A model generated the notes under the pieces. The model searched no databases, was not told where the DNA came from, and saw only the letters and a list, made by a program, of their open reading frames with translations. From the NCBI GenBank assembly GCA_016790695.1, contig JAEUOS010000192.1, positions 13,064 through 77,063 on the forward strand: a stretch of DNA of 64,000 nucleotides. Reading direction: 5' to 3'. Made by a program: the position numbers and the translations under genes. Origin of the DNA: Burkholderiales bacterium. GTDB lineage: Bacteria > Pseudomonadota > Gammaproteobacteria > Burkholderiales > JAEUOS01. Positions 15,106-64,000 of this stretch are shown piece after piece; the first letter of the stretch is position 1, and each line of letters opens with the position of its first letter.

Positions 15106-15906
15106 TCAGCCGACCTTCGCCAGCGCGCCGCCGTCGACCGGCAGCGCCACGCCGGTGATGAAGCTGGCCTCGTCGGAGGCGAGGAACAGCGCGGCGTTGG
15201 CGACGTCCCACGCGGTGCCCATCCTGCCGCGCAGCGGCACCTGCGCGTCACGCTCGGCCTCGACCTCGGCGCGCGGCCGGTTGAAGGCGCGCGCGCGCGT
15301 GTCCACCGCCATCGGCGTGTTGATCAGGCCCGGCAGGATCGCGTTGGCGCGCACGCCGTAGGGCGCGTTGGCGAGGGCGAGCTGCTGGGTGAAGGCGATC
15401 ATCGCCGCCTTGGTCGCCTTGTAGGCGACGTACGGGTAGACGCTCCAGGCGGCGATCGAGGAGATGTTGACGATCGCGCCGCTCTTCTGCGCGCGCATCA
15501 CCGGCACCACGTGCTTGCAGGCCATCACCGTGCCGCGCAGGTTGATCGCCACGACGCGGTCGAAGCCGTCCTCGGTGATGTCGGCGAGCGCCGCGTCGCC
15601 GCCCGCGATCGAGACGCCGACATTGTTGTGCAGGACATCGACGCGTCCCCAGCGCGACATCGCGTCGGCGACCATGGCGGCCATGTCGCTCTCGTGCACG
15701 ACGTCGGCCGCGAAGGCCGCGGCGGTGCCGCCGGCGGATGCGATCGCGGCCGCGGTGGCGTCGGCGCCGGCGCGGTCGCGGTCGACGCACAGCACGCGCG
15801 CACCCTCGCGCGCGAACGTGAGGGCGGCGGCGCGGCCGTTGCCGACGCCCTCGCCGGGGCTCTGCCCGGCGCCGACGACGATGGCGACGCGGTCCTTCAG
15901 GCGCAT
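15106..15906 (-). CDS. Short-chain dehydrogenase/reductase (SDR)
   Basis: 266 aa; VVGAGQSPGEGVG cofactor motif, NISS and YxxxK (YVAYKATK). Confidence 0.9.
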   Translation of the reverse strand: MRLKDRVAIVVGAGQSPGEGVGNGRAAALTFAREGARVLCVDRDRAGADATAAAIASAGGTAAAFAADVVHESDMAAMVADAMSRWGRVDVLHNNVGVSIAGGDAALADITEDGFDRVVAINLRGTVMACKHVVPVMRAQKSGAIVNISSIAAWSVYPYVAYKATKAAMIAFTQQLALANAPYGVRANAILPGLINTPMAVDTRARAFNRPRAEVEAERDAQVPLRGRMGTAWDVANAALFLASDEASFITGVALPVDGGALAKVG

Positions 15907-15936
15907 GGCGGGGCCCTCCTCGGGCGGGGTGCGGAA

Positions 15937-16752
15937 TCAATCGATGTCATCGGTGTTGCCGGAGAACTCGATCGGGCAATAGAAGCCGCCGTGGAACTGC
16001 GCGGCAATCTCGTTCTCCTTTTCGCCCCTGGCGAGGATCTCGGCGGCGTAGACCTCGGAGTCGTCGACCGGGCGGTAGCCCAAGAACCTGACGTTGCTGT
16101 TGTCCCAGCGGCTGCGCAGGTTGTTCGAGACGCCGTAGACCACCGCGAAGTGGTAGTTCGGATGGTCGATGCAGCGCCGCACGAGCTGCACCATGTCGCG
16201 ATGGCTGATCCAGGTGAGCAGCTGGCGCGCGTTGTCCGGGCGGTCCGGATTGCGGAACGTGCCGATGCGCAGGCACGCGACCGACAGGCCGTGCTTGTCC
16301 GCATAGAGCCGGCCGACGGCCTCGCCGAACACCTTGGAGACGCCGTAGCGGGTGTCGGGCCGCGGCACCACGGTGTCGTCGATGAAACGCTCGCGCCGGT
16401 GAAAGCCGATCGCGTGGTTGGAGGAAGCGAAGATCACGCGGCCCACGCCCTGGCGCCGCGCCGCCTCGAACACGTTGTAGCAGCCGGCGATGTTGGCCGG
16501 CAGCACCTTCTCCCAGCTGTCCTCCACCGAGACCCCGCCCAGGTGCACCACGCAGTCGATGCCCGCCATGCTCCTCTCGAGCGCGGCGATGTCGGCGAGG
16601 TCGCACTGCACGAGTTCCTCGCCGGCGGCGGCGTCGCCGAGCGGCGCGATGTCCGACAGGCGCAGCAGCGCGTAGCTGCCGCGGAGGCCCTGGCGCAGCG
16701 CGACGCCGATCTGGCCGGCGGCGCCGGTGATGAGGATGCGATTGGCCTGCAT
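15937..16752 (-). CDS. udh: Uronate dehydrogenase (NAD-dependent epimerase/dehydratase fold)
   Basis: 271 aa. By-eye alignment to my recollection of Agrobacterium Udh shows LITGAAGQIG, VQCDLAD, VHLGGVSVE, FASSNHAIGF, YGVSKVFGE, LRIG, WDNS..FLGY.P.D and HGGFY. Confidence 0.8.
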   Translation of the reverse strand: MQANRILITGAAGQIGVALRQGLRGSYALLRLSDIAPLGDAAAGEELVQCDLADIAALERSMAGIDCVVHLGGVSVEDSWEKVLPANIAGCYNVFEAARRQGVGRVIFASSNHAIGFHRRERFIDDTVVPRPDTRYGVSKVFGEAVGRLYADKHGLSVACLRIGTFRNPDRPDNARQLLTWISHRDMVQLVRRCIDHPNYHFAVVYGVSNNLRSRWDNSNVRFLGYRPVDDSEVYAAEILARGEKENEIAAQFHGGFYCPIEFSGNTDDID

Positions 16753-16806
16753 GCGTCCCTCCCTTCTATGGTTCGTCGGCGGCGTGGATGCCGCCCCATG
16801 CGCCGG

Positions 16807-17895
16807 CTAGACCCGCAGCGCCTCCAGCCCCTTCCAGTCGAACTCGACGCCGTGCCCCGGGCGATCCGGCGCGACCGCGCAGCCCTCCGCGATCGCCAGC
16901 GGATGGGCGATGTACTGGTCCAGGCCGAATCCGTGCGCCTCGAGGTAGCTGCGGTTGGGGCAGGCGGCCAGGCAGTGCACGGTGATGTCGTGCGCGCCGT
17001 GCGAGGTCACCGGCAGGTTGGCCGCCTCGGCCAGGCGCGCCACCTTCATGAACCCGGTGACGCCGCCGACGACGGTGACGTCCGGCTCGGGAAAGGTCAC
17101 GCCGCCGGCGGCGATCATGTTCTGGAACTCCGACAGGGTGTGGAAGTTCTCGCCGGTCGCCACCGGCAGCCCGCCGTCGCGCACGATGCGCGCATGACCG
17201 GCGATGTCGTCGGGGATCGTGGGCTCCTCCAGCCAGACCGGCTGCAGGGGCGCGAGCGCGCGCGCCGCGCGGATCGCCTCGTCGGCGCTCCAGCGCATGT
17301 TCGCGTCGACCATCAGCGGGAAGTCGGCGCCGAGGTGCGCGCGCATCGCCGCCACCCGCGCCACGTCCTCCGAGAGCCGCGGCCGGCCCACCTTCATCTT
17401 GATGGCGCGAAACCCCTTCGCCAGGTTGGCGTCGGTCTGCGCGAGCAGCGCCTCCTCGGTGAACCAGAGGTCGATGCCGCCGGCGTAGCACGGCACGCGC
17501 GCGTCGAAGCCGCCCAGGAGCGTCCACAGCGGCACGCCGAAGCCGCGCGCCTTCAGGTCCCACAGCGCGATGTCGATCGCGGCGATCGCCATGGTCGCGG
17601 CGCCGCCGCGGCCGCCGTAGTGCAGGCGCCACCACATCTTCTGCCACACGGCCTCGATCAGGTCGGCGCGCTCCCCGACGAGCCCGGGCGCGAGGTCGTG
17701 GGCGATGGTGGCCGCGATCGCGCGGCCGTTGGCGCCGACGGTGTAGGTGTAGCCGCAGCCGTCGCCGCCGGCCGAGTCGGTGACGCGCGCGGTGACGAGT
17801 TCGAAGTGCGTCAGCGTGCCGTGAGTGCTGTCGCTCAGGGTCACCGGCAGCGGGATGCGGTAGAGGTCGGCGCGGACCGAGGCGATCGTGTTCAT
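16807..17895 (-). CDS. Enolase-superfamily enzyme, mandelate-racemase-subgroup-like (acid-sugar dehydratase/cycloisomerase candidate)
   Basis: ATG at 17895 by codon count (362 aa). KxK (IKMKVG), metal ligands MVDANM / WLEEP / ATGEN, and a late His (TSHGAHD). Confidence 0.85.
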   Translation of the reverse strand: MNTIASVRADLYRIPLPVTLSDSTHGTLTHFELVTARVTDSAGGDGCGYTYTVGANGRAIAATIAHDLAPGLVGERADLIEAVWQKMWWRLHYGGRGGAATMAIAAIDIALWDLKARGFGVPLWTLLGGFDARVPCYAGGIDLWFTEEALLAQTDANLAKGFRAIKMKVGRPRLSEDVARVAAMRAHLGADFPLMVDANMRWSADEAIRAARALAPLQPVWLEEPTIPDDIAGHARIVRDGGLPVATGENFHTLSEFQNMIAAGGVTFPEPDVTVVGGVTGFMKVARLAEAANLPVTSHGAHDITVHCLAACPNRSYLEAHGFGLDQYIAHPLAIAEGCAVAPDRPGHGVEFDWKGLEALRV

Positions 17896-17948
17896 CGATT
17901 CCGGGCCGCGTCGGGAGCGCGTCGCGTTTGCCGGCAGGCCATGGGGAG

Positions 17949-19133
17949 TCAGGCCAGTCCGTGCACCGCCAGCGTCGCGCGCATGCGCGCGCACGCGAGG
18001 TCGGGGTCGCGCAGCAGCCCGGCGCGGTCGGCGAGGCGGAACAGCTCCGCCAGGTGCAGGATGGAGCGCGCGCTCTGCTGGCCGCCGACCATGGTGAAGT
18101 GGTCCTGCGCGCCGTTGAGATAGGCCATGAACACCACGCCGGTCTTGTAGAAGCGCGTCGGCGCGCGGAAGATGTGGCGCGACAGCGGCACGGTGGGCGC
18201 GAGGATCGCGTTGAAGGTGCGCGTGTCGTCCTTCGCCAGCGCGGCCAGCGCGGCGGAGGCCGCCGGCGCGATGGCGTCGAAGATGCCCAGCAGCGCATGG
18301 CTGAAGCCGACGGCATCGCCTTCGATCAGCTCGGCGTAGTTGAAGTCGTCGCCGGTGTACATCTTCACGCCGGGCGCGAGCCGGCGGCGCATCGCGATCT
18401 CCTTGTCCTTGTCGAGCAGCGACACCTTGACGCCGTCGACCCGCGCGGCGTTGCGGTTGATCACGTCGACGGCGACGTCCATCGCGGCCAGGTGATCGGC
18501 CCGGCCCCAGTAGCCGGCGAGCGCCGGGTCGAACATCTCGCCGAGCCAGTGGATGATCACCGGCTCCCTCACCTGCGTCAGGATGCGGTCGTAGACGCGG
18601 TGGTAGTCGTCGGGCGATCGCGCCACCTGCGCCAGCGCGCGGCTGGCCATCAGGATGATGCGTCCGCCGAGCTTCTCGATCGCCGCGATCTGTTCCTCGT
18701 AGGCGCGGATCACGTCGTCGACCGAGCGCGCCGCGGCGGGGTCGAGGTGGTCGGTGCCGGCGCCGCTGGCCAGGAGCGCGCCCGGGATCTCTTTCGCCGC
18801 GTCGATGGAGCGCCGGATGAGTTCGAGCGAGGTCGGCCAGTCCAGGCCCATGCCGCGCTGCGCGGTGTCCATCGCCTCGGCCACGCCGAGGCCCAACCGC
18901 CACAGCCGGCGCCGGTAGGCGATGGTGGCGTCCCAGTCGATCGCGCAATCCAGCCACGGGTCGTGCTCCGCCAGCGGGTCGGCGACCACGTGCGCTGCCG
19001 AGTAGGCGATGCGCGTGAAGGCGCCGGCGGCACGGTCCGGAAAGCTGCGCGAGGCCGACAGGCGGAAGGTCTCGAGCCGGCCGCCGGCGACCGGCAGGTC
19101 GATGGCGGCGGCGATGCGTTCGGGGGCGTTCAT
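17949..19133 (-). CDS. DUF993 family protein (TIM-barrel, aldolase/DHDPS-like by recollection)
   Basis: ATG at 19133 by codon count (394 aa), ATGA overlap with the upstream gene. Conserved-looking blocks IAYSAAHVVADP, GLGVAEAMDTAQRGMGLDW and PVIIHWLGEMFDPALAGYWG match my memory of DUF993. Confidence 0.7.
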   Translation of the reverse strand: MNAPERIAAAIDLPVAGGRLETFRLSASRSFPDRAAGAFTRIAYSAAHVVADPLAEHDPWLDCAIDWDATIAYRRRLWRLGLGVAEAMDTAQRGMGLDWPTSLELIRRSIDAAKEIPGALLASGAGTDHLDPAAARSVDDVIRAYEEQIAAIEKLGGRIILMASRALAQVARSPDDYHRVYDRILTQVREPVIIHWLGEMFDPALAGYWGRADHLAAMDVAVDVINRNAARVDGVKVSLLDKDKEIAMRRRLAPGVKMYTGDDFNYAELIEGDAVGFSHALLGIFDAIAPAASAALAALAKDDTRTFNAILAPTVPLSRHIFRAPTRFYKTGVVFMAYLNGAQDHFTMVGGQQSARSILHLAELFRLADRAGLLRDPDLACARMRATLAVHGLA

Positions 19134-20569
19134 GGACTCTCCTTCGGGTGGGCGAGCGCGCGCATGCTGTTCCAGTCGGGCATCGCGGCGCTGGCGAAGC
19201 CGGCGCAGGCGAGCGAGCCGATCGCGATCTGTCCGTCGCGGATCCGCAGGCGCACCGCGCCGTGCGAGCGCGCGTAGAGGTCCGGGTGGGCCGCGAGGAA
19301 ATCGCGCTGCTCGGCCTCCGGATACGCGGCCATGCCGTCGACGTAGTGGTGGCCGTTGCGCTCCACGTGGGTGATGCCCAGGAGGTTGACCAGCGCCAGG
19401 TCCTGCTGCACGGCCAGGCCTGCCTGCGTCGTCAGGTCCTCGGCCGACATGAAGTAGCGCGGCGCGCCCGTCTCGCGGTTCCACTGCGCGCAGCGCGCCG
19501 CGTTGAGGATCGACTTGTAGAGGCCCTTGCAGGTCTTGGACGACACGCCGTCGTAGCCGCGCGCGCGCGCGTCGGCAAAGGTGTCGAGGGAGCCGTCGGA
19601 CTCGTCGATGATCACCGGCAGGCCGAGCGGCGTGCGCGCGAAGTCGGCGTCGAGCGCGGTCTTGCGGTTGATCGGCTGCTCGACGAACAGGATCGACGCC
19701 GTCAGGCGCGTGAGCGCCGGGCGCTCGCGCATGCGCGCGAGCAGCAGGGCGACCGCCCCGGCGTCCGCATACTGCTCGTTGCCGTCCAGCGACGCGAAGT
19801 AGGGCGCGGCCGAGCGGTCGAGCACCGCGGCGATCGCCTCGAGGCGGGCGAGGTCGGCGCCGATGTCGCCGCCGACCTTGAGCTTGAAGTACCGGTGGCC
19901 GTAGGTGGCGACGACCTCGTCGAGCGTTTCCGGCAGGCCGTCGCCGACGCGCTCGCGCAGGTCGGCGGCGGTGATGGCATCGACGAGCCCGACGGTGTGG
20001 CGGGCCGCGATCGCGGCGGCGGGCTCGCGCGCCGCCAGGAACGCGTCGATGTCGAGGCCGCCGAACTCGCGCCGCGCCGCGCCGATGCCGGCCAGGTTGC
20101 CGCGCATGGCGGTGTAGAAGTCGGTGCCGGCGGCGCGGCAGGCGGCGTCGAGGATGGCGCGGTCGATCAGCGCGGGCCCGTAACTGGCGAGCAGCGGGTT
20201 GTGGCCCCGCGCGCCCGCGGCGGCCAGATGCGCGTCGTAGTGGCGCGCGAAGTGGCCGAAGGCGGATGCCGGCGTCGCGTCGGCGAGATAGGCGTCGCGC
20301 GCGAGCAGCAGCACGTCGCGCAGCTGGTCGAAGTTGTCCTCGTTGCTGAGCGCGAGGTTCTTGTCGAACCACTTCGGCGCCATCATCTCGGCGGCGGCGC
20401 CGGCGGCCGTGCGGCCGTCGGTGAATTCCAGGGTCACGCGCGCGAAGGCTTGCGGGCAGGCCGTCAGGGTGACGACGCCGAAGCGGAACGGCAGGCGCAG
20501 CACCACCGGCCGCTCGAACAGCTCGATGGCGCGGACGGAAAAGCGCGGGGCGGCGCCGGCGGCGGCCAT
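19130..20569 (-). CDS. Divergent enolase-superfamily-like protein (479 aa)
   Basis: KxK (YFKLKVGG) and acidic ligands in enolase-barrel order (SLDGNEQY, FVEQP, IIDESD), with long N- and C-terminal regions I do not recognise. Confidence 0.6.
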   Translation of the reverse strand: MAAAGAAPRFSVRAIELFERPVVLRLPFRFGVVTLTACPQAFARVTLEFTDGRTAAGAAAEMMAPKWFDKNLALSNEDNFDQLRDVLLLARDAYLADATPASAFGHFARHYDAHLAAAGARGHNPLLASYGPALIDRAILDAACRAAGTDFYTAMRGNLAGIGAARREFGGLDIDAFLAAREPAAAIAARHTVGLVDAITAADLRERVGDGLPETLDEVVATYGHRYFKLKVGGDIGADLARLEAIAAVLDRSAAPYFASLDGNEQYADAGAVALLLARMRERPALTRLTASILFVEQPINRKTALDADFARTPLGLPVIIDESDGSLDTFADARARGYDGVSSKTCKGLYKSILNAARCAQWNRETGAPRYFMSAEDLTTQAGLAVQQDLALVNLLGITHVERNGHHYVDGMAAYPEAEQRDFLAAHPDLYARSHGAVRLRIRDGQIAIGSLACAGFASAAMPDWNSMRALAHPKESP

Positions 20570-20573
20570 GGCG

Positions 20574-21353
20574 TCAGTCCATCGCCAGCACGCCGGTGGC
20601 GCGGAAGATCTCGCGGATGCGGCCGGTGTACTCGTTGAAGCGCTCGGGCACCCGGTCCAGGCGCCGCGGCCGCGGCAGGTCGATGTCGAGGATCTCGACG
20701 ATGCGCCCGGGGCGCGGGCTCATCACCACGACGCGGTCGGCCAGCAGCACCGCCTCGGGGATGCTGTGGGTGATGAACAGCGCCGTCTTGCGCTTCTCCA
20801 TCCAGACGCGCTGGATGTCCATCGCGATCTGCTCGCGCGTGAGCGCATCGAGCGCGCCGAACGGCTCGTCCATCAGCAGCAGCGGCGGGTCGTGCACCAG
20901 CGCGCGGCAGATCGAGGCGCGCTGGCGCATGCCGCCGGAGAGCTCGAACGGCCGGTGCTTCTCGAATCCCGCGAGGCCGGTCGATGCCAGCAGGTGGCGC
21001 GCGACCGGCTCGTAGGCCGCGCGGTCGAGGCCGCGGATGTCGACCTGCAGCATCACGTTGTCGAGGATGTTGCGCCAGTCGAGCAGGATCGCGTCCTGGA
21101 ACACGATGCCGAGGTCGGTGTGCGGCCCGTCGACGCGCCGGCCGTCGACGGTGATCGTGCCGCTGGTGTACGGCTGCAGCCCGGCCACCATCTTGAGGAT
21201 GGTGGTCTTGCCGCAGCCGCTCGGGCCGACGATGGCGATGAACTCCGAGCGCCGGATCGCGAGGTTGACCTCGCCGCAGGCCTCGACCGGCCCGGCCTTC
21301 GACGGGTAGACCTTGCCGACGTTGTCGAGCCGGATGTAGGTGTCGTCGGCCAT
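20574..21353 (-). CDS. ABC transporter ATP-binding protein (NitT/TauT family)
   Basis: 259 aa; Walker A GPSGCGKTT, signature LSGGMRQR, Walker B LLLMDEP. Its start overlaps the SBP stop by 1 nt. Confidence 0.9.
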   Translation of the reverse strand: MADDTYIRLDNVGKVYPSKAGPVEACGEVNLAIRRSEFIAIVGPSGCGKTTILKMVAGLQPYTSGTITVDGRRVDGPHTDLGIVFQDAILLDWRNILDNVMLQVDIRGLDRAAYEPVARHLLASTGLAGFEKHRPFELSGGMRQRASICRALVHDPPLLLMDEPFGALDALTREQIAMDIQRVWMEKRKTALFITHSIPEAVLLADRVVVMSPRPGRIVEILDIDLPRPRRLDRVPERFNEYTGRIREIFRATGVLAMD

Positions 21354-22363
21354 CAGCGCTTGGGCAGGTACGGCGCTTCCGACAGGTACTCGTTGGTGAA
21401 GTACACGTTGAGGTCGGACGCCGGATTGAGCTTGGCGAACTTCGCGAGCAGGTCCTGGGTGTCGCGCCAGTCGCCGATGTCGGAGACCCCGATCGCCTTG
21501 CCCTTGGTGCGCTCGGTGCGGATGATGCTCATCGTGCCCTCGACCTCGAGCAGCGCGATCTCCTGGGTGAACACCGGCGCGGCCTTGCGGAAGATCTCGG
21601 CGGCCTCGGCGCGATTGTCGAACGCATGCTGCCAGCCGCGCTGCGAGGCGCGCAGGAAGCGCCGCAGCATGTCCTGGTTCTTCGCATCCTTGGCCCAGTT
21701 GTTGTTGACGATGATCGCCGAGGACAGCGTGGTCACGCCGGCCATGTCGTAGAGGCGGGTCCAGCCCATCTTGACGCCGGTCTGCAGCTGCATGCGCGGG
21801 CCCTGGTCCATGAAGTAGCCGAGCAGCGCGTCGGCCTGCTTGTTGAGCACGGCCTGCTCCTTGCCCTGCGGATTGGCCACCGTGATCACCTGGACATCCT
21901 CGACCTTCATGCCGAGCTTGCCCATGAAGGCGGTGAAGATCGCGAGGCTCGCGTCGCCGGCGGTCATGGCGATGCGGCTGCCCTTGATCTCCGAGATCTT
22001 GGTCGGCCGCGCCGCGTCCGCCCGGTAGATGAAGGCCATCGGGCTCTGCTGCAGGGTCACGCCGACCGCGCGGATCGGCATGCCGTTCGAGACGCCGCGC
22101 ATCATCGTCGCGGCGTCGACGTACGCGACCGGGCTGTTGTTCGACGCCACCAGCTGCGAGACGGTGGTCGAGCCGCTGCCTTCCTGGATCTCGACGTCGA
22201 GCCCCTCGGCGGCGTAGAAGCCCTTGTCGCGGGCGACGAAGAACGGCGCGTGCTCGCCGTACAGCGTCCAGTTGAGGCGGAACGGGAACTTGTCGAGCCG
22301 GGCCTGGGCCAGGGCCTGGCCGCCCATCATCAGCAGTACCAACAGCAGCAGGATGCGCTTCAT
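21353..22363 (-). CDS. NMT1/THI5-like (SsuA/TauA-type) periplasmic substrate-binding protein
   Basis: 336 aa with signal peptide MKRILLLLVLLMMGGQALAQA. Located between the ATPase and the permease of the same family. Confidence 0.85.
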   Translation of the reverse strand: MKRILLLLVLLMMGGQALAQARLDKFPFRLNWTLYGEHAPFFVARDKGFYAAEGLDVEIQEGSGSTTVSQLVASNNSPVAYVDAATMMRGVSNGMPIRAVGVTLQQSPMAFIYRADAARPTKISEIKGSRIAMTAGDASLAIFTAFMGKLGMKVEDVQVITVANPQGKEQAVLNKQADALLGYFMDQGPRMQLQTGVKMGWTRLYDMAGVTTLSSAIIVNNNWAKDAKNQDMLRRFLRASQRGWQHAFDNRAEAAEIFRKAAPVFTQEIALLEVEGTMSIIRTERTKGKAIGVSDIGDWRDTQDLLAKFAKLNPASDLNVYFTNEYLSEAPYLPKR

Positions 22364-22388
22364 GGATGTCTCCTTTGGGTTGACGACG

Positions 22389-23156
22389 CTACATGGTGCC
22401 TGCGCCCTCGCGCACGCGGTGGGTCACGTGCCAGGGGATCAGGAAGGCTTCGAGGAACTCGACGATGTAGAAGAACACCAGGCCGATGATGGTCAGCGCC
22501 ACGATGGTCGCGAACATCAGCGCGGTCTCCATGTTCGAATTGGTGACCAGCAGCAGGTAGCCGAGCCCCTTGTCGGCGCCGACGAACTCGCCGACCACCG
22601 CGCCGGCGACCGCGAGGGTGGCGGCGACCTTGAGCCCGGAGAAGAGGTAGGGCAGGCTGGTCGGCAGGCGGAAGCGCGCGAACAGCTGCCAGCGCGTTGC
22701 GCCCATCGAGCGCGCCAGGTCGTTCATTTCCGACGACATCGAGCGCAGGCCGACGGCCGCGTCGATGACGATCGGAAAGAACGAGATCAGGAACGCGACC
22801 AGCACCTTGGGCGTGGTGCCGACGCCGAACCACACGAGGAACAGCGGCGCGATCGCGACCTTGGGCACGACCTGGAAGAACAGGAGCTGCGGCGTGATGA
22901 AGCGGTCGAAGCGGTTCGACGAGGTGATGCCGATCGCGAGCGGCACGGCGATGACCACCGCGAGCAGGTAGCCGAGCAGCATCTCGTAGGTCGTGATCCA
23001 GCCGTGGAACAGCAGCTTGGGGAACTCCTGGACGAACGTGCCGAACACCTTGGTCGGCGGCGGCATCAGGTAGGCCGGCACCTTGAACAGGTGCACCAGC
23101 ACCTCCCAGGCGGCGAGGAAGACGAGGATGCCGAAGAACGGGGCGAGGCGGATCAT
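22389..23156 (-). CDS. ABC transporter permease (NitT/TauT family)
   Basis: ATG at 23156 by codon count (255 aa, 6 predicted TM). ATGA overlap with the upstream enolase gene. Confidence 0.9.
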   Translation of the reverse strand: MIRLAPFFGILVFLAAWEVLVHLFKVPAYLMPPPTKVFGTFVQEFPKLLFHGWITTYEMLLGYLLAVVIAVPLAIGITSSNRFDRFITPQLLFFQVVPKVAIAPLFLVWFGVGTTPKVLVAFLISFFPIVIDAAVGLRSMSSEMNDLARSMGATRWQLFARFRLPTSLPYLFSGLKVAATLAVAGAVVGEFVGADKGLGYLLLVTNSNMETALMFATIVALTIIGLVFFYIVEFLEAFLIPWHVTHRVREGAGTM

Positions 23157-24277
23157 GAAGCGGCGGCGGGCGTCAGGGATTGGAGGGCGGCGGCGTCCGG
23201 CACGATGCCGAGGCCGGGGCGGTCGGGCACGCGCACGCGGTCCAGCCGCGCGCGGAACGCGGCGTCGGTCGTGCCGCGGCCGTCGAGGTACTGCGGGCCG
23301 TTGAGCGCCGCCGGCCGTTCCAGGCCGGCCCAGGCGAACAGGTGGATCGAGGCGGCGAGCGACAGTTCGGCGTCGGTCAGGCCGGAGGCGAACAGCGCGA
23401 GCCCGTCGCGGCGCATGCCCTCGACGATGCGCGCGGCGTGCCAGAGGCCGCCGCAGCGCGCCACCTTCATCGCGATGCCGTCGAGCATGCCGAGGGCGGC
23501 GAACTCCTCGGCCTCGACCGCCGAGATCACGCCTTCGTCCATCAGGATCGGCAGCGCACCCTGCCGCTTGAGCGCCTGGTAGGCGCGGATGCGATTCGGC
23601 GGCAGCGGCGACTCGAGGGCCGCCAGCCCCAGGTCGGCCAGGCGCGGCGCCTGCGCGAGCGCGGTATCGAGGTCGTAGCCGGTGTTGGCGTCGCCCCAAT
23701 GGAGCCCGCCGGGCGCGAAGGCCATCACCTTGCGGACCAGGGCGAGATCGTAGTCGGGGCTCTGCGGCGGGCCGAGCTTGATGTTGAAGCTGCCGTAGCC
23801 GAGGGCGCGGCCCTCCTCGAGCAGCCGGTCGGCGGCGTCGAGGCTCGTGGTGTTGATGGTCCACGACAGCCGGATCTCCGCGGCGCGCACGCCGCCCAGC
23901 AGCGCGGCCACCGGCCGGCCGGCCTGGTGTCCCCAGAGGTCGTGGCAGGCGAGGTCGATCGCCGCCTTGGCCAGCGGCTGCCCGACCGAGAAGCTCGGCC
24001 GGATCGCGCGTTCCATCCGCGCATGGATGTCGGCGAGATCGGCGGGATCGGCGCCGAGCACCGCCGGCGCGAGGTACAGCCGGAGCGTGGACTCGACGCT
24101 CTCGACGGTCTCGTAGGTCCAGGTCTCGACCGGCACCGCCTGCCCGTAGCCGTGGCGCCCGTCCGCGTCGGTCAGGCGCACCAGCACGGTCGGCCGGCTG
24201 CCCGACTTGAAGAACTTGAACTCGCCCACCAGGGGATAGTCCCGGCGGCCGACTTCCACCTTGGTGATCCTGGACAT
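23153..24277 (-). CDS. Enolase-superfamily enzyme, muconate-lactonizing-subgroup-like (racemase/epimerase/cycloisomerase candidate)
   Basis: 374 aa; NIKLG (first Lys of KxK replaced by Asn), ligands WGDANTG / ALESP / LMDEG, and second base IAMKVARCGG. Confidence 0.85.
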   Translation of the reverse strand: MSRITKVEVGRRDYPLVGEFKFFKSGSRPTVLVRLTDADGRHGYGQAVPVETWTYETVESVESTLRLYLAPAVLGADPADLADIHARMERAIRPSFSVGQPLAKAAIDLACHDLWGHQAGRPVAALLGGVRAAEIRLSWTINTTSLDAADRLLEEGRALGYGSFNIKLGPPQSPDYDLALVRKVMAFAPGGLHWGDANTGYDLDTALAQAPRLADLGLAALESPLPPNRIRAYQALKRQGALPILMDEGVISAVEAEEFAALGMLDGIAMKVARCGGLWHAARIVEGMRRDGLALFASGLTDAELSLAASIHLFAWAGLERPAALNGPQYLDGRGTTDAAFRARLDRVRVPDRPGLGIVPDAAALQSLTPAAAS

Positions 24278-24319
24278 GTCGATTGCAGGGAGATGCCGCG
24301 CCAGAACGAGTCGGGAAGT

Positions 24320-24335
24320 GTAACCGAACGGTTAA
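24320..24335. promoter_or_regulatory. Candidate TetR-type operator O1 (GTAAC-N6-GTTAA)
   Basis: gTAACcgaaCGGTTAa, 43 nt upstream of the enolase ATG (24277, minus strand). It shares TAAC-N4-CGGTTA with three other sites. Confidence 0.55.
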
Positions 24336-24458
24336 CCTCGTTCACCGCCGCGCTGCGGCGCGCGGGCGCCGCCGCCGCCGCGCGCGCGCCGCCGCGACGG
24401 ACGCACCCGGAGGCGGTCGCACACCGGCCCGCGCGCGGCGGCCGGGCCCGGGCCCGAA

Positions 24459-24474
24459 GTAACGAGACGGTTAC
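24459..24474. promoter_or_regulatory. Candidate TetR-type operator O2 (GTAAC-N6-GTTAC)
   Basis: gTAACgagaCGGTTAc, 44 nt upstream of the MetE-like ATG (24518). It sits immediately upstream of a TAGGAT -10-like hexamer at 24481. Confidence 0.55.
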
Positions 24475-24517
24475 ATGTGTTAGGATTTTCGGGTTCATCG
24501 CAACCACGGGAATCGCC

Positions 24518-25522
24518 ATGCCGCGCATCAAGACCACCGTCGTCGGGTCGTATCCGGTGCCCGACTGGCTCGCCGCCGCGCCGTCCGAGCAGGCGCTGAC
24601 CGACGCCACCCGCGTGGTCATCGCCACGCAGGAGACCGCCGGCATCGACGTGGTCTGCGACGGTGAGCTCTACCGCTTCGACGTCAACCATCCCGAGACC
24701 AACGGGATGATCGAGTACTTCGTGCGCCCGCTCGACGGGGTCGGCTTCCGCATGAGTTTCGAGGAGCGCATCGCCTACCGCCAGGCCGAGGCGACGCGCT
24801 TTCGCACCCGCCCGCCGGGCGTCGTCGAGGGGCCGCTCGGCAGCGGCATGCTCGACCTGCCGCTCGCGTGCGCGCGCGCCGCGGCGCTCGCCACCAAGCC
24901 GTTCAAGTTCACCCTGACCGGCCCGCACATGCTCGCCAAGATGGTGATGAACAAGCACTACAAGGACACGCCGTCGCTGGCGTTCGCGCTCGCCGACATC
25001 CTCGCCGAGCAGGTCGCGCACTGCCGCGCCGACATCATCCAGGTCGACGAGGCCAACCTGCCCGGCGCGCCCGACGAATGGGAGTGGGCGGCCGCGTCGA
25101 TGAATCGGGTGCTCGACGCGGTCACGTCGGTGCCCGCGGTGCACCTGTGCTTCGGCAACTACGGCGGCCAGAGCATCCAGAAGGGCGGCTGGAAGAGCCT
25201 GATCCGCTACCTCAACGCATTGCACGTCGACCACATCGTCATGGAATGCGCGCACCGGCCCGAGGACGAACTCGCGGTGTTCCGCGACCTCGACCCGAAG
25301 ATCGGCTTCGGGCTGGGCGTGGTCGACATCAAGCGCACCGAGGCCGAGTCGGCGGACGCGATCGCGCGCGCGATCGAGCGTGCCGAGAAGACCCTGGGCG
25401 CGGGGCGCGTGAAGTACATCCATCCGGACTGCGGCTTCTGGATGCTCAAGCGCGGCATCGCCGACGCCAAGATCCGCGCGCTCGCGAAGGGGCGCGACCT
25501 GTTCGAGGGCGTCGCCGGCTAG
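24518..25522 (+). CDS. Cobalamin-independent methionine synthase (MetE C-terminal-like) family protein, second paralog
   Basis: 334 aa from MPRIKTTVVGSYPVPDWL, with VHLCFGNYGG and HPDCGFW motifs. Confidence 0.8.
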   Translation: MPRIKTTVVGSYPVPDWLAAAPSEQALTDATRVVIATQETAGIDVVCDGELYRFDVNHPETNGMIEYFVRPLDGVGFRMSFEERIAYRQAEATRFRTRPPGVVEGPLGSGMLDLPLACARAAALATKPFKFTLTGPHMLAKMVMNKHYKDTPSLAFALADILAEQVAHCRADIIQVDEANLPGAPDEWEWAAASMNRVLDAVTSVPAVHLCFGNYGGQSIQKGGWKSLIRYLNALHVDHIVMECAHRPEDELAVFRDLDPKIGFGLGVVDIKRTEAESADAIARAIERAEKTLGAGRVKYIHPDCGFWMLKRGIADAKIRALAKGRDLFEGVAG

Positions 25523-26346
25523 AGGCTCTCGGCGAGACCCTGCAGGTAGCCGATCGCGCGCGCCGCGCAGCCCGGGCCGTCCGGCACGTACTCGAACGGC
25601 TCGGCGGCGACCACGCCCGCGTAGCCGGTGTCCGCCAGCGCGCGCAGGATCGGCCCGAATTCCATCGCGCCCTGTCCGGGCGCGCGCCGGTTCGGGTCGT
25701 TGACCTGGACGTGGGCGACGAGCCCGGTGGGCATCCAGCGGCGGATCAGGTCGGCCACCGGCTCGGCCTCGGAGACGCCGGCGGAACTGGTGTCGATCAT
25801 GGTGCGCAGATGCGGGTTGTCGACCGCGCGCACGATCGCGGCGGCGTCGGCAAGCGTGTTGATCACCCGCGTCTGCGCCGGCGACAGCGGCTCGATGCAG
25901 TAGGTGACGCCGGCCGCGCGCGCGGCCGCGCCGGCAGCGGCGAACGCCTCGGTGGCGCGGTCGACGGCGGTCGCGACGGTCTCGCCCGGCGCCACGGCGC
26001 GCTGGGCATTCGAGCCGTGCACGAGGTAGGTGCCGCCCATCGCGGCGCACAGCTCGCACAGCCGCCGCATCATCGCCACGGTGCGCGCGCGCACGGCGCC
26101 GTCGGGCGCGGTGATCGACAGGCCCGCGGGCCGGACCAGCAGCCAGTGCAGCCCGGTGATGGCGATGCCGTGATCGGCGGCGACCGCGGCCAGCGCGCGC
26201 GCATCGGCCTCGGTCATCGCCTCGGGGTCGTCGGCGACCGTGTAGGGGGCGACCTCCAGCCCCATGTAGCCGAGCGCGGCGGCGATGCGGCATTGCGCGG
26301 CGAACGGCAGCGGTGCGAGCACCTCGTTGCACAGCGCGAACTTCAT
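25519..26346 (-). CDS. Sugar phosphate isomerase/epimerase (xylose-isomerase-like TIM barrel)
   Basis: 275 aa; MKFALCNEVL... with YCIEPL and VHVQVND motifs. It lies 19 nt downstream of the TetR gene, so it is probably co-transcribed with it. Confidence 0.8.
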   Translation of the reverse strand: MKFALCNEVLAPLPFAAQCRIAAALGYMGLEVAPYTVADDPEAMTEADARALAAVAADHGIAITGLHWLLVRPAGLSITAPDGAVRARTVAMMRRLCELCAAMGGTYLVHGSNAQRAVAPGETVATAVDRATEAFAAAGAAARAAGVTYCIEPLSPAQTRVINTLADAAAIVRAVDNPHLRTMIDTSSAGVSEAEPVADLIRRWMPTGLVAHVQVNDPNRRAPGQGAMEFGPILRALADTGYAGVVAAEPFEYVPDGPGCAARAIGYLQGLAESL

Positions 26347-26365
26347 CGCGATCCGCTCCGCGCGG

Positions 26366-27040
26366 TCATGCCTTGAACAGATAGCCCAGCACGAGGTCGG
26401 TCATGTGCGCGAGGCGCTCGGCCTTGGCGCGCGGCGACAGCAGGTCGCGGCCGAAGATCGCCGACAGCGTGTACTTGTTGCCGAGGTAGAAGTAGGTGAG
26501 CGCGGCGATCGAGATGTACAGCTGCACCGGATCGACGCCGGCGCGGAAGACGCCGGACTTGCGCCCGCGCTCGAGGATGTCCTCGATCATGGCCACGAAC
26601 GGCGAATGCATCGAGCGCACCGTGGTCGAATTCTCGAGGTGCCGCGCGCGATGCAGGTTGGCGCTGTTCAAGAGCGTCATGAATTCCGGGTTCTCGAGGT
26701 AGTAGTTCCAGGTGAACGCGACCAGCCGGCGGATCGCCTCCGGCGGCTCGACCTCGGCCAGGCGCAGCGCCTTCTCGGCCTCGCGGATGTGCGCGTAGGC
26801 GGCCTCGAGCACCGCGAGGAACAGCTCGTCCTTGTTGCCGAAGTAGTAGTAGAGCATGCGCTTGTTCGCATCGGCCGCGGCGGCGATGCGGTCGACGCGC
26901 GCCCCGCCCAGGCCGTGGGCGGCGAACTCCGCCTTGGCAGCCTCGAGGATGCGCGCGCGGGTGCGCTCCGGGTCGCGCGCCGGGCGGTCGACCGGCCGCT
27001 TGCGCCGGGCCGGCGATGCCGCTTTCGGAATGGCCTTCAT
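26366..27040 (-). CDS. TetR/AcrR-family transcriptional regulator
   Basis: 224 aa; HTH (ILEAAKAEFAAHGLGGARVDRIAAAADANKRMLYYYFGNKDELF). Confidence 0.9.
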   Translation of the reverse strand: MKAIPKAASPARRKRPVDRPARDPERTRARILEAAKAEFAAHGLGGARVDRIAAAADANKRMLYYYFGNKDELFLAVLEAAYAHIREAEKALRLAEVEPPEAIRRLVAFTWNYYLENPEFMTLLNSANLHRARHLENSTTVRSMHSPFVAMIEDILERGRKSGVFRAGVDPVQLYISIAALTYFYLGNKYTLSAIFGRDLLSPRAKAERLAHMTDLVLGYLFKA

Positions 27041-27046
27041 CGAACT

Positions 27047-27065
27047 ATTGTAACTGTCCGGTTAC
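27047..27065. promoter_or_regulatory. Candidate TetR operator O3 (GTAAC-N6-GTTAC) overlapping a TACAAT -10 box for the TetR gene
   Basis: Plus strand gTAACtgtcCGGTTAc at 27050-27065. On the minus strand it reads GGTAACCGGACAGTTACAATagttcgATG. TACAAT (27052-27047) ends 6 nt before the TetR ATG, and there is no Shine-Dalgarno. Confidence 0.55.
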
Positions 27066-27124
27066 CGGCAGCAAATCCGTGTCGCACGGCGCCCGCCCGC
27101 GAAGCGCGCGGGTAAACTCGCGCC

Positions 27125-28411
27125 ATGAACCCCGAGGCCCTGCTGCAGAAGAGCTTCGCCGCCGCGGTGGCGGCAGCCGATCCGCTGACGATCGTGCCGG
27201 CGCACCTGCCGTCGCCGCCGCGCGGGCGCACCGTGGTGGTCGGCGCGGGCAAGGCTGCGGCATCGATGGCGAAGGCCGTCGAACGGCACTGGCCGGCGAC
27301 GGCGGCGCTCGAGGGCCTGGTGATCACACGCTATGCCCACGGCTACGCGGGCGACGCGGCCTTGAAGCGCATCCGCGTCGTCGAGGCCGGCCACCCGGTG
27401 CCGGACGACGCCGGCGAGGCGGCGGCGCGCGAGATCGCCGCGCTCGCCCGCGCGCTCGGTCCCGACGACCTGCTGCTGGCGCTGGTGTCCGGCGGCGGAT
27501 CGAGCCTGCTGGCGCTGCCGGCCGAGGGCATTGCGATGGCCGACCTCAAGGCCGCCACGCGCGAACTGCTCGCCTGCGGCGCGCCGATCCAGGACATGAA
27601 CGTCGTGCGCAAGCACCTCTCGCTGATCCAGGGCGGGCGCCTGGCCGCGATGTGCGGTGCGCCGATCCTCTCGCTGGTGATCTCGGACGTCACCGGGGAC
27701 GAGCCGACCCACATCGCGAGCGGCCCCACGGTTCCCGACCCCAGCACCTACCAGGACGCGATCGACATCCTCGCGCGCTTCGACTGCCAGGTGCCTCCGG
27801 CGGTGAGCGAACGCCTCGCCGCCGGCGCGCGCGGCGGCATCGAGGAGACGCCCAAGCCCGGCGCGCCCGCGTTCGCGCGCGCCGACACGCGCGTGATCGC
27901 CACCGCGCACAGGAGCCTGGAGGCGGCCGCCGGCGTCTGCCGCGCCGCCGGTTTCACGCCGGTGATCCTGGGCGACACCGTCACGGGCGAGGCGCGCGAG
28001 GTCGCGCGCGCCCACGCGGCCATCGCGCGCGAGATCATCGCCTTCGGCGCGCCGTTCCGGCGGCCGGTCGCGCTGATCTCCGGCGGCGAGTGCACGGTGA
28101 CGCTGAAGAACCCGAACGGCCGCGGCGGACGCTGCAGCGAGTACCTGCTGTCACTGGCGATCGAGCTCGCCGGCGCGCCGGGGGTGTGGGGCCTGGCGGC
28201 CGACACCGACGGCATCGACGGATCGGAAAGCAACGCGGGCGCGTGGTTCGCGCCGGCGATGTGGCAGGCGGCTGCCGCGCGCGGGCTGCGCGCCGACAAG
28301 CTGCTCGCGGCGAACGACGCGTTCGGTTACTTCGAGGCCGTCGGCGGGTTGGTCCACACCGGTCCGACCCGCACCAACGTCAACGATTTCCGCGTCGTCC
28401 TGATCGCCTGA
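27125..28411 (+). CDS. Glycerate 2-kinase (MOFRL/DUF4147 family, TtuD/GckA-like)
   Basis: 428 aa; VVVGAGKAAASMA, LVSGGGSSL, MNVVRKHLS.IQGG, and C-terminal GTDGIDG...TGPTRTNVNDF. Confidence 0.85.
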   Translation: MNPEALLQKSFAAAVAAADPLTIVPAHLPSPPRGRTVVVGAGKAAASMAKAVERHWPATAALEGLVITRYAHGYAGDAALKRIRVVEAGHPVPDDAGEAAAREIAALARALGPDDLLLALVSGGGSSLLALPAEGIAMADLKAATRELLACGAPIQDMNVVRKHLSLIQGGRLAAMCGAPILSLVISDVTGDEPTHIASGPTVPDPSTYQDAIDILARFDCQVPPAVSERLAAGARGGIEETPKPGAPAFARADTRVIATAHRSLEAAAGVCRAAGFTPVILGDTVTGEAREVARAHAAIAREIIAFGAPFRRPVALISGGECTVTLKNPNGRGGRCSEYLLSLAIELAGAPGVWGLAADTDGIDGSESNAGAWFAPAMWQAAAARGLRADKLLAANDAFGYFEAVGGLVHTGPTRTNVNDFRVVLIA

Positions 28412-60834: not shown

Positions 60835-62004
60835 ATGAATCCACGTCCCCTGGAAGGCATCACCGTCATCGCCCTCGAACACGCGATCGCCGCGCCGTTC
60901 GCCACGCGCCAGCTCGCCGACATGGGCGCGCGGGTGATCAAGATCGAGCGCCCGGGCGTCGGCGACTTCGCGCGCGCCTATGACGCGCGCGTGGCCGGCC
61001 TGTGCTCCCACTTCGCCTGGGTCAACCGTTCCAAGGAGAGTCTGGCGCTGGATCTCAAGGACGCCGCGGCGCGCGAGGTGCTCGCGCGCCTGCTCGAGCG
61101 GGCCGACGTGCTGATCCAGAACCTGGCGCCGGGCGCCACCGCGCGCATGGGGCTCGACTACGCGAGCCTGAAGGAGCGCCATCCGCGCCTGATCGTCTGC
61201 GACATCTCCGGCTACGGCGGCGACGGGCCGCAGCGCGACAAGAAGGCCTACGACCTCCTGATCCAGAGCGAGGCGGGCTTCCTCTCGACCACCGGGACGC
61301 CGGAGGAGCCGGCCAAGGCCGGCATCTCGATCGCCGACATCGCCGCCGGCATGTACGCCTACACCGGCATCCTCAACGCCCTGATGCTGCGCGAGAAGAC
61401 CGGCACGGGCTCCGCCATCGATGTCTCGATGCTCGAGTCCCTCGCCGAGTGGATGAGCTTTCCGCTGTACTACGCGTACCAGGGCGCGAGCCCGCCGCCG
61501 CGCGCCGGCGCCAGCCACGCCACGATCTACCCGTACGGGCCGTTCCGCGCCGGCGACGGCAAGCGCGTGGTGCTGGGCCTGCAGAACGAGCGCGAGTGGG
61601 CCGCGTTCTGCGCCGAGGTGCTGCGCGACCCGGCCCTTGCCGGCGACATGCTGTTCGACAGCGTGGCCAAGCGCTCCGCCAACCGCGAGGCGCTGCGCGC
61701 GATCATCGAGGCCGCGTTCGAGCCGCTCTCGACCGCGGAGGTCGAGGCCAGGCTCGACGCCGCCGGCATCGGCTACGGCCGCATGAACGACATGGCGGGG
61801 CTGTGGGCGCATCCGCAGCTTGCGGCGCGGAAGCGCTGGCGCGAGGTCGAATCGCCGGTCGGCCCGATCCCGGCGCTGCTGCCGCCGGGAACCTCCTCGG
61901 CGTTCGAGGCGCGCATGGACCCGGTGCCGGCCTTGGGCGCGCATACCGAGGCGATCCTGCGCGAGATCGGTTGCGACGCAGCATGCATCGCGCGGTTGAC
62001 CTGA
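60835..62004 (+). CDS. Family III CoA-transferase (CaiB/BaiF)
   Basis: 389 aa; GITVIALEHAIAAPFATRQLADMGARVIKIE, AYDLLIQSEAG, ADIAAGMYA. Confidence 0.9.
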   Translation: MNPRPLEGITVIALEHAIAAPFATRQLADMGARVIKIERPGVGDFARAYDARVAGLCSHFAWVNRSKESLALDLKDAAAREVLARLLERADVLIQNLAPGATARMGLDYASLKERHPRLIVCDISGYGGDGPQRDKKAYDLLIQSEAGFLSTTGTPEEPAKAGISIADIAAGMYAYTGILNALMLREKTGTGSAIDVSMLESLAEWMSFPLYYAYQGASPPPRAGASHATIYPYGPFRAGDGKRVVLGLQNEREWAAFCAEVLRDPALAGDMLFDSVAKRSANREALRAIIEAAFEPLSTAEVEARLDAAGIGYGRMNDMAGLWAHPQLAARKRWREVESPVGPIPALLPPGTSSAFEARMDPVPALGAHTEAILREIGCDAACIARLT

Positions 62005-62017
62005 GGTAGACTGATTT

Positions 62018-62033
62018 TTAACGACCCGGTTAC
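62018..62033. promoter_or_regulatory. Candidate TetR-type operator O4 (TTAAC-N6-GTTAC)
   Basis: tTAACgaccCGGTTAc, starting 6 nt after a TAGACT -10-like hexamer (62007-62012). It lies 49 nt upstream of the SBP ATG. Confidence 0.5.
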
Positions 62034-62081
62034 CTGCACGCCGGGCAGACCCCGTGCCGAGTCCACCCCGAGGAGATGCAC

Positions 62082-63368: not shown

Positions 63369-63431
63369 GCGCCGCCGCCGTCCGGCGCAGCGCCAGTCCG
63401 CCGGCGCCGCGGCGCCGGCGCTTGCACGCCA

Positions 63432-64000
63432 ATGCTCAACGTCCAGGCCCTGACCAAGAAGTTCGGCGGCTTCACCGCCGTCTCCTCGATCTCCTTCGAC
63501 CTGGCCGAGGGGGAGATCCTCGGCCTCATCGGACCCAACGGCTCGGGCAAGAGCACGACGTTCAATCTCATCGCCGGCCTGTACGCGCCGACCGCCGGCT
63601 CGATCCGGTTCCAGGGCCGCGAGATCGGCGGCCTCAGCGCCACCCAGGTCTGCCATGCGGGCATCGGCCGCACGTTCCAGATCCCGCGACCGTTCAGGAA
63701 GCTCAGCGTCATCGAGAACGTGACCCTGGCCGCCTACTACGGCCAGGCCGGGCGTGTCAGCGAGGCCGAGGCCAGGCGCCAGGCGGCCGACGCGCTGGAC
63801 CTGATCGGACTGCCGCACGCGCGCGGCGAGGGGATCGACGGCCTCGGTGCGGCGGCGCTGAAGAAGCTCGAGATGGCGCGCGCCCTCGCGACCCAGCCCC
63901 GGCTGCTGCTCGCCGATGAGTCGCTCGGCGGTCTCGACGAGGCCGAGATGGAGCAGGCCGCCGACATGCTGCGCATGATCCGCAGGGAGCGCAACATCAC
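63432..64000 (+). CDS. ABC transporter ATP-binding protein (LivG-like), truncated by the window edge
   Basis: Not in the ORF track because no stop lies within the window. My own translation from the ATG at 63432 reads MLNVQALTKKFGGFTAVSSISFDLAEGEILGLIGPNGSGKSTTFNLIAG... with Walker A, a Q-loop (GRTFQ) and Walker B (LLLADE). Confidence 0.85.
   Translation, partial: MLNVQALTKKFGGFTAVSSISFDLAEGEILGLIGPNGSGKSTTFNLIAGLYAPTAGSIRFQGREIGGLSATQVCHAGIGRTFQIPRPFRKLSVIENVTLAAYYGQAGRVSEAEARRQAADALDLIGLPHARGEGIDGLGAAALKKLEMARALATQPRLLLADESLGGLDEAEMEQAADMLRMIRRERNI

Follow-up and report, generated by a model that had tools for sequence, protein, structure and literature searches.

Among the described systems that come closest to the element studied here, the TetR-family regulator RutR of Escherichia coli binds as one dimer per site to the 16-bp RUT box TTGACCANNTGGTGAA (as printed in PMC2952853, citing Shimada et al.; dimer stoichiometry from PMC2952853). 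In mycobacteria, one dimer of BkaR occupies each 16-bp core GTTA-N-T-N4-A-N-TAAC (PMC3920632). The Burkholderia pseudomallei regulator BP1026B_II1561 (PMC11358695) has the consensus TATnnGAACTAACTAGnT by chromatin immunoprecipitation sequencing; its direct targets, shikimate/quinate-type genes and a porin, are described as up-regulated, and an autoregulatory site is not reported (PMC11358695). It is the only studied PF17938 regulator found in the literature on PF17938, TetR_C_29 and PF06187. The last related group consists of the gene clusters in which a TetR gene is linked to a DUF993 gene, for which no published function or operator was found in the literature; likewise, no paper was found on DUF993 and nothing on the regulation of S. 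meliloti SMc04129-04134. The present analysis concerns a 16-bp palindrome that is repeated in a 64,000-nt stretch of a Burkholderiales genome (the window, contig C61:13064-77063), and which is very probably the operator of the TetR-family repressor encoded at 26366-27040. The assembly has 5,489,972 bp in 228 contigs, with 71% G+C and A = T = 0.144. The operators of the window are named O1 to O4, this genome is G000, its relatives are numbered from G001 onward, and L numbers designate loci.

An earlier note, made from the letters of the window, had described three copies of the motif TAAC-N4-CGGTTA around the tetR gene and had predicted a single regulon under this TetR. The three sites are present and read as it described, and a fourth copy, O4, turned up on scanning the whole window. 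The operators and the regulator gene are the following:

24320-24335: O1, GTAACCGAACGGTTAA, 42 nt 5' of the ATG of ENO1, an MR/MLE enolase gene and the first gene of a minus-strand nine-gene operon
24459-24474: O2, GTAACGAGACGGTTAC, 43 nt 5' of the MetE-like gene, abutting its predicted extended -10
27050-27065: O3, GTAACTGTCCGGTTAC, 9 nt 5' of the tetR ATG, in the tetR promoter spacer and overlapping the predicted -10
62018-62033: O4, TTAACGACCCGGTTAC, 14 nt past the stop of a coenzyme A (CoA)-transferase gene and 42-48 nt 5' of a Liv-type substrate-binding protein (SBP) gene
26366-27040, minus strand: tetR, coding for a 224-aa TetR-family regulator with the domains TetR_N and TetR_C_29

Comparison of both strands gives the unit of all sites as the 16-bp palindrome KTAACCR-NN-YGGTTAM. 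Of the GTAAC-N6-GTTAC palindrome proposed earlier, the symmetry stands and the 5-6-5 extent does not, since the half-site has 7 nt (GTAACCG) and the layout is therefore 7-2-7. An extended inverted repeat was looked for around O1 to O4 and was found at none of the four. The four copies of the window all lie in intergenic DNA (ENO1/MetE-like, tetR/glyK and CoA-transferase/Liv-type SBP), as do two copies outside it that are presented below. The spacing between O1 and O2 ranges from 107 to 150 bp among orthologous loci, so that the two sites look independent of each other and not phased.

This operator resembles the RUT box in several respects: the proteins are of the TetR family in both cases, both sites are 16-bp palindromes and both have the 7-2-7 layout. 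In comparison with TTGACCA-NN-TGGTCAA, agreement is found at four of the six outer half-site positions (-8 to -3), namely -7, -5, -4 and -3 (T-A-C-C), whereas position -6 is A here, C in a variant clade and G in RutR. Lys60 and Lys70 of the TetR align by spacing with the lysines K51 and K61 used by RutR. An assignment of the TetR as RutR was nevertheless rejected. The protein scores 64.4 bits with the RutR model NCBIfam TIGR03613, below the cut-off of 368, with the same outcome when the whole genome was searched, it has the C-terminal domain TetR_C_29, unlike RutR, and its neighbourhood is different: around it and among its predicted targets are enolase-superfamily, DUF993, Udh-like, ATP-binding cassette (ABC), tripartite ATP-independent periplasmic (TRAP) and old-yellow-enzyme-like (OYE-like) genes, in contrast to the rut, car and pyrimidine genes of RutR. 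Moreover, RutR often binds far 5' of promoters or within genes, whereas the sites described here are all on predicted promoters.

The locus shares with Tn10 TetR/tetO and with BkaR a divergent region carrying two palindromes, one per promoter, a repressor predicted to be autoregulated, and a small regulon with few extra remote sites (PMC3920632). Unlike those systems, the two-operator region lies here between the nine-gene operon and the MetE-like gene, and tetR has a third, separate operator. The arms of the BkaR operator point in the opposite direction; BkaR acts on branched-chain keto-acid genes and differs from the TetR studied here in phylum and in C-terminal domain. BP1026B_II1561 has the same TetR_N and TetR_C_29 domains and also a Burkholderiales host, but its consensus is different from the operator described here.

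The evidence that links the palindrome to the TetR is essentially comparative. Orthologues of the TetR were searched for in 60 genomes of relatives; they were detected in 19 genomes of the family, with 71-87% identity, and the palindrome lies just 5' of tetR in 19 of 19. A wider set was composed of 80 named tetR-homologue loci from a species-representative collection (Burkholderiales and some Alphaproteobacteria). In 51 of these 80 loci, the pattern T[AC]AC-N6-GT[TG]A is present within 300 bp 5' of the tetR homologue, and sites in this position are 26 times as dense as in the remainder of the 80 loci, where many sites are themselves operators of operons.

Phylogenetic footprinting of the orthologous intergenic DNA, which had been suggested as a check, leads to the same view. 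When 12 glyK-tetR intergenic regions are aligned (glyK being the glycerate 2-kinase gene divergent from tetR), the O3-type site emerges as the main invariant block. Four blocks are kept in these regions: the glyK ATG with the hexamer TAAAAT/TAAACT, a TTGCC-like -35, the block TAACC-N5-AGTTACAAT, and the tetR ATG, located 6 nt past the preceding block, the arrangement GTTACAAT-N6-ATG being conserved at tetR. When 8 intergenic regions between the MetE-like gene and the operon were aligned, the two operators stood out together with the extended -10 of the MetE-like gene and the TTGACA-N17-(-10) of the operon. The position of O1 is conserved in 7 orthologous loci, directly after this TTGACA-N17-(-10), and O2 is conserved in orthologous loci alongside a TGnTAGGAT/TAGCAT block. 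The mean pairwise identity of the operator columns is of 0.92 and 0.77, versus 0.50 and 0.47 in the other well-aligned columns.

We also observe that the operator and the recognition helix of the TetR vary together. Operators of the TAACC type pair with the helix NKRMLYYYF, and operators of the TCACC type with the helix NKRLIYYYF (Variovorax, Polaromonas, Rhodoferax, Aquabacterium and others). Together with the GACC box of RutR, which has a helix of its own, this hints at a reading of operator position -6 by residues 62 and 63 of the TetR. In the loci L064-L110 (Variovorax, Polaromonas and others), the NKRLIYYYF helix accompanies the operator variant TTCACC-N4-GGTGAA; the Variovorax-type variant TCACC...GGTGAA matches the right arm of the printed RutR consensus.

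The gene map was established from the frame-specific G+C content and from Pfam/NCBIfam profiles, and the genes that adjoin the operators are the following:

15106-24277, minus strand: nine-gene operon, predicted target of O1
24518-25522, plus strand: MetE-like gene, Pfam Meth_synt_2 79.2 bits (cobalamin-independent synthase catalytic domain), predicted target of O2
25519-26346, minus strand: xylose-isomerase-like triosephosphate isomerase (TIM)-barrel gene, Pfam AP_endonuc_2 130.9 bits, 19 nt 3' of tetR
27125-28411, plus strand: glyK, glycerate 2-kinase gene with DUF4147 and MOFRL, divergent from tetR
62076-64000, plus strand: Liv-type ABC uptake operon, with a Peripla_BP_6 SBP gene at 62076-63368 and an ABC ATPase gene from 63432

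From the operator positions and their conservation, the supported members of the predicted regulon are the nine-gene operon (O1), the MetE-like gene (O2), and tetR with the isomerase-like gene (O3). The earlier note had already placed the uronate-type operon, the MetE-like gene and the isomerase in one regulon under the adjacent TetR, and the comparative evidence agrees with this core, through the 19 of 19 orthologues, the 26-fold density and the footprint; its inclusion of glyK is not retained. The MetE-like gene is syntenic with the operator pair in relatives. The isomerase-like gene directly adjoins tetR in L041 and L042 and is probably co-transcribed with it, on the basis of the 19-nt gap and of a terminator scan of 24200-27200, in which none was found; the same scan of 61800-62200 gave none either. 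The absence of the TetR in G001 and G004 was considered as a natural control and set aside, as both assemblies are 71-83% complete and G004 keeps the operator pair beside X479, the fifth gene of the nine-gene operon.

Three further predicted members must be added to the regulon, namely the Liv-type ABC operon, an OYE-like flavin reductase and the TRAP binding protein DctP. The O4 site, located 3' of a family III CoA-transferase gene, precedes the Liv-type operon, which continues beyond the end of the window to about 66783 with ABC ATPase and permease genes. On the 5' side of the SBP orthologues, G005 and G008 have an identical site, G019 and G021 also carry one, and a degenerate form occurs in G002, G003, G009 and G010; an O4-type site is absent at the SBP orthologues of 69-72% identity. 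The site C64:5531 lies between a cupin gene and the OYE-like reductase gene, and it is kept in position in G010 beside an 83%-identical OYE-like orthologue, with diverged inner bases. The site C133:16659 lies 5' of the gene for DctP and is kept in G010 beside an 88% orthologue, also with diverged inner bases. In relatives, further sites were detected 5' of a formamidase-like/molybdenum-hydroxylase operon, of another TRAP system and of an Ldh_2 gene. Thus, in the locus L129 (G010:C463, 10802-15000), the operator copy GTAACCAAACGGTTAA is situated 5' of an operon starting with a formamidase/acetamidase-family gene, which continues with the FAD and molybdopterin subunits of xanthine-dehydrogenase type, an unexpected content for a sugar-acid regulon.

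Among the alternatives, the one that survives best concerns glyK: the TetR would bind the sites as proposed and would also act on glyK from O3, as a repressor or an activator, so that glyK would be part of the regulon. The position of the gene speaks for this: in the window, as in 11 orthologous loci, glyK is divergent from tetR and lies only 59 nt from O3. In addition, sugar-acid breakdown by the aldarate/tartronate-semialdehyde routes could plausibly end in glycerate. The hexamer TAAACT, resembling a -10, occurs at 27113-27118 (TTAAAAT in relatives), 6 nt before the glyK ATG and without a Shine-Dalgarno sequence, which suggests that the glyK mRNA is leaderless. With this start, the centre of O3 is about 67 bp 5' of glyK, outside the predicted -35/-10 of this gene. 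The hexamer is kept even where glyK is unlinked from tetR (e.g. L138 and L143), and the unlinked glyK orthologues (71-82% identity) of G011, G012 and G014 keep the promoter TTAAAAT-N6-ATG with no operator 5' of the gene. Several tetR loci have no adjoining glyK. We consider a control of glyK by the TetR as unlikely, and the preferred regulon is the one without this gene.

The palindrome could also be the real site of another regulator encoded elsewhere, the adjacent TetR having a different target. The genome does contain TetRs with related N-terminal domains, one being a 55%-identical paralogue at C158:21439-22107 and the other a RutR-like protein on C201 (143 bits). The paralogue, of which orthologues were found in most genomes of the family, has the helix NERMLYYYF, with a glutamate at the position of the DNA-contacting lysine, and the C201 protein has the helix SKPQLHYYI; both helices differ from that of the adjacent TetR (N59-K-R-M-L-Y-Y-Y-F67) at base-contacting positions. 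Among the proteins of the genome, the adjacent TetR is the sole match to the helix pattern xK[RT]x[LI][YL]YYF. No TAACC-type site was found near the C158 paralogue, the upstream region of which differs from that of tetR, and none of the inspected loci of this paralogue in relatives has the palindrome, whereas the site travels with the TetR orthologue in 51 of the 80 loci despite differing gene orders. Another regulator is therefore improbable. The adjacent TetR itself has the domains of its family: PF00440 TetR_N is matched by residues 31-77 with 53.5 bits (cut-off 24), PF17938 TetR_C_29 by residues 99-217 with 157.6 bits (cut-off 26.2), and the closest solved structures, 3npi and 2d6y, are both TetR-family proteins.

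Assuming that this TetR is the cognate regulator, the positions of the operators relative to the putative promoters would account for repression. The generic sigma-70 scanner called none of the proposed promoters in 24200-27200 and 61800-62200, and the -35/-10 assignments are those of conserved alignment blocks:

27047-27052, minus strand: predicted -10 of tetR, TACAAT, conserved block, 6 nt before the ATG
27069-27074, minus strand: predicted -35-like element of tetR, TTGCTG, conserved TTGCC-like block
24478-24486, plus strand: predicted extended -10 of the MetE-like gene, TGtTAGGAT, conserved alignment block

The minus strand at tetR reads TTGCTG-N16-TACAAT-N6-ATG, and O3 fills the -35/-10 spacer and covers the first three bases of the predicted -10. 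O2 is separated by 3 nt from the TG of the predicted extended -10 and thus covers the -35/spacer region of the MetE-like promoter. In relatives, O1 immediately follows the predicted -10 of a TTGACA-N17 promoter, so that the transcription start would be covered. An operator placed in this way, directly behind TTGACA-N17-(-10), also precedes the OYE gene of both G000 and G010 and the tetR of Polaromonas, and in the Variovorax-type transport operon TTGACA-N17-AACAAT directly abuts the TCACC operator.

The predicted mechanism is that of an ordinary TetR repressor/operator switch, with one TetR dimer probably on each operator copy. The TetR bound to O3 would exclude RNA polymerase from the tetR promoter, given the location of the site in the spacer and over the -10, so that repression and autoregulation of tetR are likely; tetR and the isomerase-like gene would be autoregulated from a leaderless transcript. 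O2 would control the MetE-like gene through the -35/spacer of its promoter, O1 the divergent nine-gene enolase/ABC/X479/DUF993/Udh operon, and O4 the Liv-type ABC uptake operon 35 kb away. The two off-window sites would act on the promoters of the OYE-like reductase and of the TRAP transporter. A small molecule, probably an imported sugar acid or an early intermediate, would act as the ligand of the TetR_C_29 domain and cause the repressor to leave the operators. In this scheme we infer binding, the sign of regulation, the stoichiometry and the inducer; repression, one dimer per site and release by a ligand are proposed by analogy with the established behaviour of the TetR family and with the work on RutR (PMC2952853).

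According to a third alternative, the conserved blocks would be mere promoter elements (TACAAT/TACACT with their spacer) or structural DNA, the palindrome being incidental and no dedicated repressor being involved. The right arm indeed merges with the -10 at tetR and possibly at ENO1 (GTTACACT), and in a genome of 71% G+C the A/T-rich words gather in intergenic DNA. However, conservation extends to both arms, even to the one that falls in the spacer, for which sigma-70 has no sequence requirement, and the symmetry is kept while the inner bases vary. The placement of the site also varies: at tetR it occupies the spacer, at the MetE-like gene it lies over the -35, and in relatives it follows the -10 of the transport operon and of the OYE gene. 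This explanation is very improbable, and an Rfam scan of 24000-27300 detected no riboswitch or known RNA that would explain the intergenic conservation. The sole Rfam match was a radC element below threshold (25206-25349, minus strand, 23.3 bits for a gathering score of 40 bits, E = 0.12), which lies inside the MetE-like coding region and is most likely due to chance.

The frequency of the motif was evaluated in the window and in the whole genome. With at most one mismatch, GTAAC-N6-GTTAC has 4 matches in the window for 0.08 expected from dinucleotide-preserving shuffles, of which none of 100 reached 4, and TAAC-N4-CGGTTA has 6 strand-matches for 0.13 expected. In the whole genome, TAAC-N4-CGGTTA occurs 5 times, 4 of them inside the window. 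The degenerate consensus KTAACCRNNYGGTTAM with at most one mismatch has exactly 6 genome matches, corresponding to O1-O4, C64:5531 and C133:16659; four of them fall within 38 kb. Copies in coding regions were a concern raised at the outset, and these six best copies are all intergenic. At 2 mismatches, 14 genome matches were obtained, which are G+C-rich and of which more than half are inside coding sequence. A whole-genome scan with a position weight matrix, as the earlier note had proposed, was done with a matrix built from orthologous sites and gave only 8 matches. In G006, a relative with a complete genome, 5 of 9 matches to TAAC-N6-GTTA are within 44 kb around tetR and X479. When the reversed pattern ATTG-N6-CAAT was counted as a control, the total of TAAC-N6-GTTA was not over-represented in relatives, so that the signal sits in the location and in the inner bases. 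Two candidate copies were rejected. The copy ATAACGATCCGGTTAT at C16:42588-42603 lies inside a longer inverted repeat, GCGCATAAC-N6-GTTATGCGC, which would form a terminator-like or repetitive extragenic palindrome-like hairpin and which is located about 20 nt past the stop of an outer-membrane efflux-type gene; the match at C155:522 was likewise set aside as terminator-like. A chance occurrence of the repeated motif can be dismissed as having a negligible probability: the base composition does predict about one match of such quality per genome (estimate), but the observed count was reached in 0 of 100 shuffles, four sites are in one 38-kb stretch and the positions are conserved in dozens of genomes.

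Several observations weigh against the reading of the palindrome as the operator of the adjacent TetR. Given the same estimate of about one chance match per genome, a lone site such as C133 or C64 is unconvincing without conservation, and the force of the argument lies in the clustering and in the cross-genome conservation, not in the raw rarity. By the pattern used, 29 of the 80 homologue loci have no upstream site; some of them have variants such as TTCCCCGCTCGGTTAG and others have the tetR inside an operon. The covariation of helix and operator corresponds essentially to one clade-level switch and is thus weak as independent evidence, and mixed helix/operator cases were observed in L062, L076 and L082. 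The silence of the promoter scanner belongs here too, as does the O1 region of the window, which is without the TTGACA box of relatives. The 24340-24458 interval, between O1 and O2, is a low-complexity stretch of about 120 bp that is almost pure G+C with many overlapping GC palindromes; the missing box is attributed to this stretch, and the action of O1 in this genome is consequently less clear. In this genome, the nine-gene operon may thus have a remodelled promoter; a GTGAAC-N17-TACACT promoter with O1 in its spacer is possible but weak.

The nine genes of the operon are, in this order, ENO1, a NitT/TauT-type ABC permease, an NMT1-type SBP, an ATPase, X479, DUF993, a second enolase, a Udh homologue and a short-chain dehydrogenase/reductase (SDR). 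The second enolase-superfamily gene (16807-17946) has the L-talarate/galactarate dehydratase model as closest model, with 263 bits, below the equivalog cut-off of 500. The gene 15937-16806 matches the Udh of Agrobacterium tumefaciens (3rft) with E = 1.2e-65 over residues 21-276. The uronate-type label previously given to this operon is borne out, at the level of homology, by the joint presence of the Udh homologue and of the aldarate-dehydratase-type enolase. An acidic sugar is suggested as the substrate of the system by the Udh homologue, by the galactarate-dehydratase-like enolase and by the importers of carboxylate type. The DUF993 protein matches the sole solved DUF993 structure, 4dnh, a structural-genomics protein of S. 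meliloti labelled as uncharacterised.

In Burkholderiales, Bradyrhizobium and Ferrovibrio, a conserved core is located beside the TetR homologue, comprising an importer (NitT/TauT ABC or TctABC), the isomerase-like TIM barrel, X479, a Gfo/Idh/MocA dehydrogenase and DUF993. The TetR-linked clusters of DUF993, Gfo/Idh/MocA and TIM-barrel genes (S. meliloti, 4dnh) have in common with the locus studied here DUF993, the isomerase-like TIM barrel, X479 and an importer. In contrast with those clusters, the operon described here is without a Gfo/Idh/MocA gene and has in addition two enolase-superfamily genes, the Udh homologue and the SDR. At a related TetR/DUF993 locus, a tetR is flanked by a CACCA-N3-GGTTACTT box, which we take to be an unchecked lead and not evidence.

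A broader reading, which we put forward tentatively and rate slightly below an even chance, is that the operator picks out all the genes of an undescribed and widely conserved sugar-acid catabolic system (X479, DUF993, TIM-barrel isomerase, MetE-like protein, OYE-like reductase and three importers) under one ligand-responsive TetR, with the helix residues 62-63 (M-L, L-I, or N-L in RutR) setting the base at -6 (A, C and G, respectively) as a recognition code shared with RutR. The operator would tie together breakdown and uptake genes for sugar acids in a pathway for which no published description was found. With six sites in 5.5 Mb, it is specific enough to list the genes that belong with the DUF993/atypical-enolase module, and the unexpected members (MetE-like gene, OYE-like reductase, Liv-type and TRAP importers) reduce the range of possible substrates. 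The repressor would be a ready-made biosensor for the substrate of the module, and the ligand that releases it would name the inducer of the pathway. Moreover, the RutR-like geometry combined with a clade-specific change of one base and two helix residues represents a small testable case of specificity evolution in TetR proteins.

Within this module, X479 is a 479-aa atypical enolase-like protein with a weak MR_MLE_C match and no relatives by sequence in the PDB. In a sister genus, the X479 orthologues G014:C15:23610-25013 and G011:C77:20366-21769 each contain one in-frame TGA, for which a pseudogene common to both, a sequencing artefact and a recoded codon are possible explanations.

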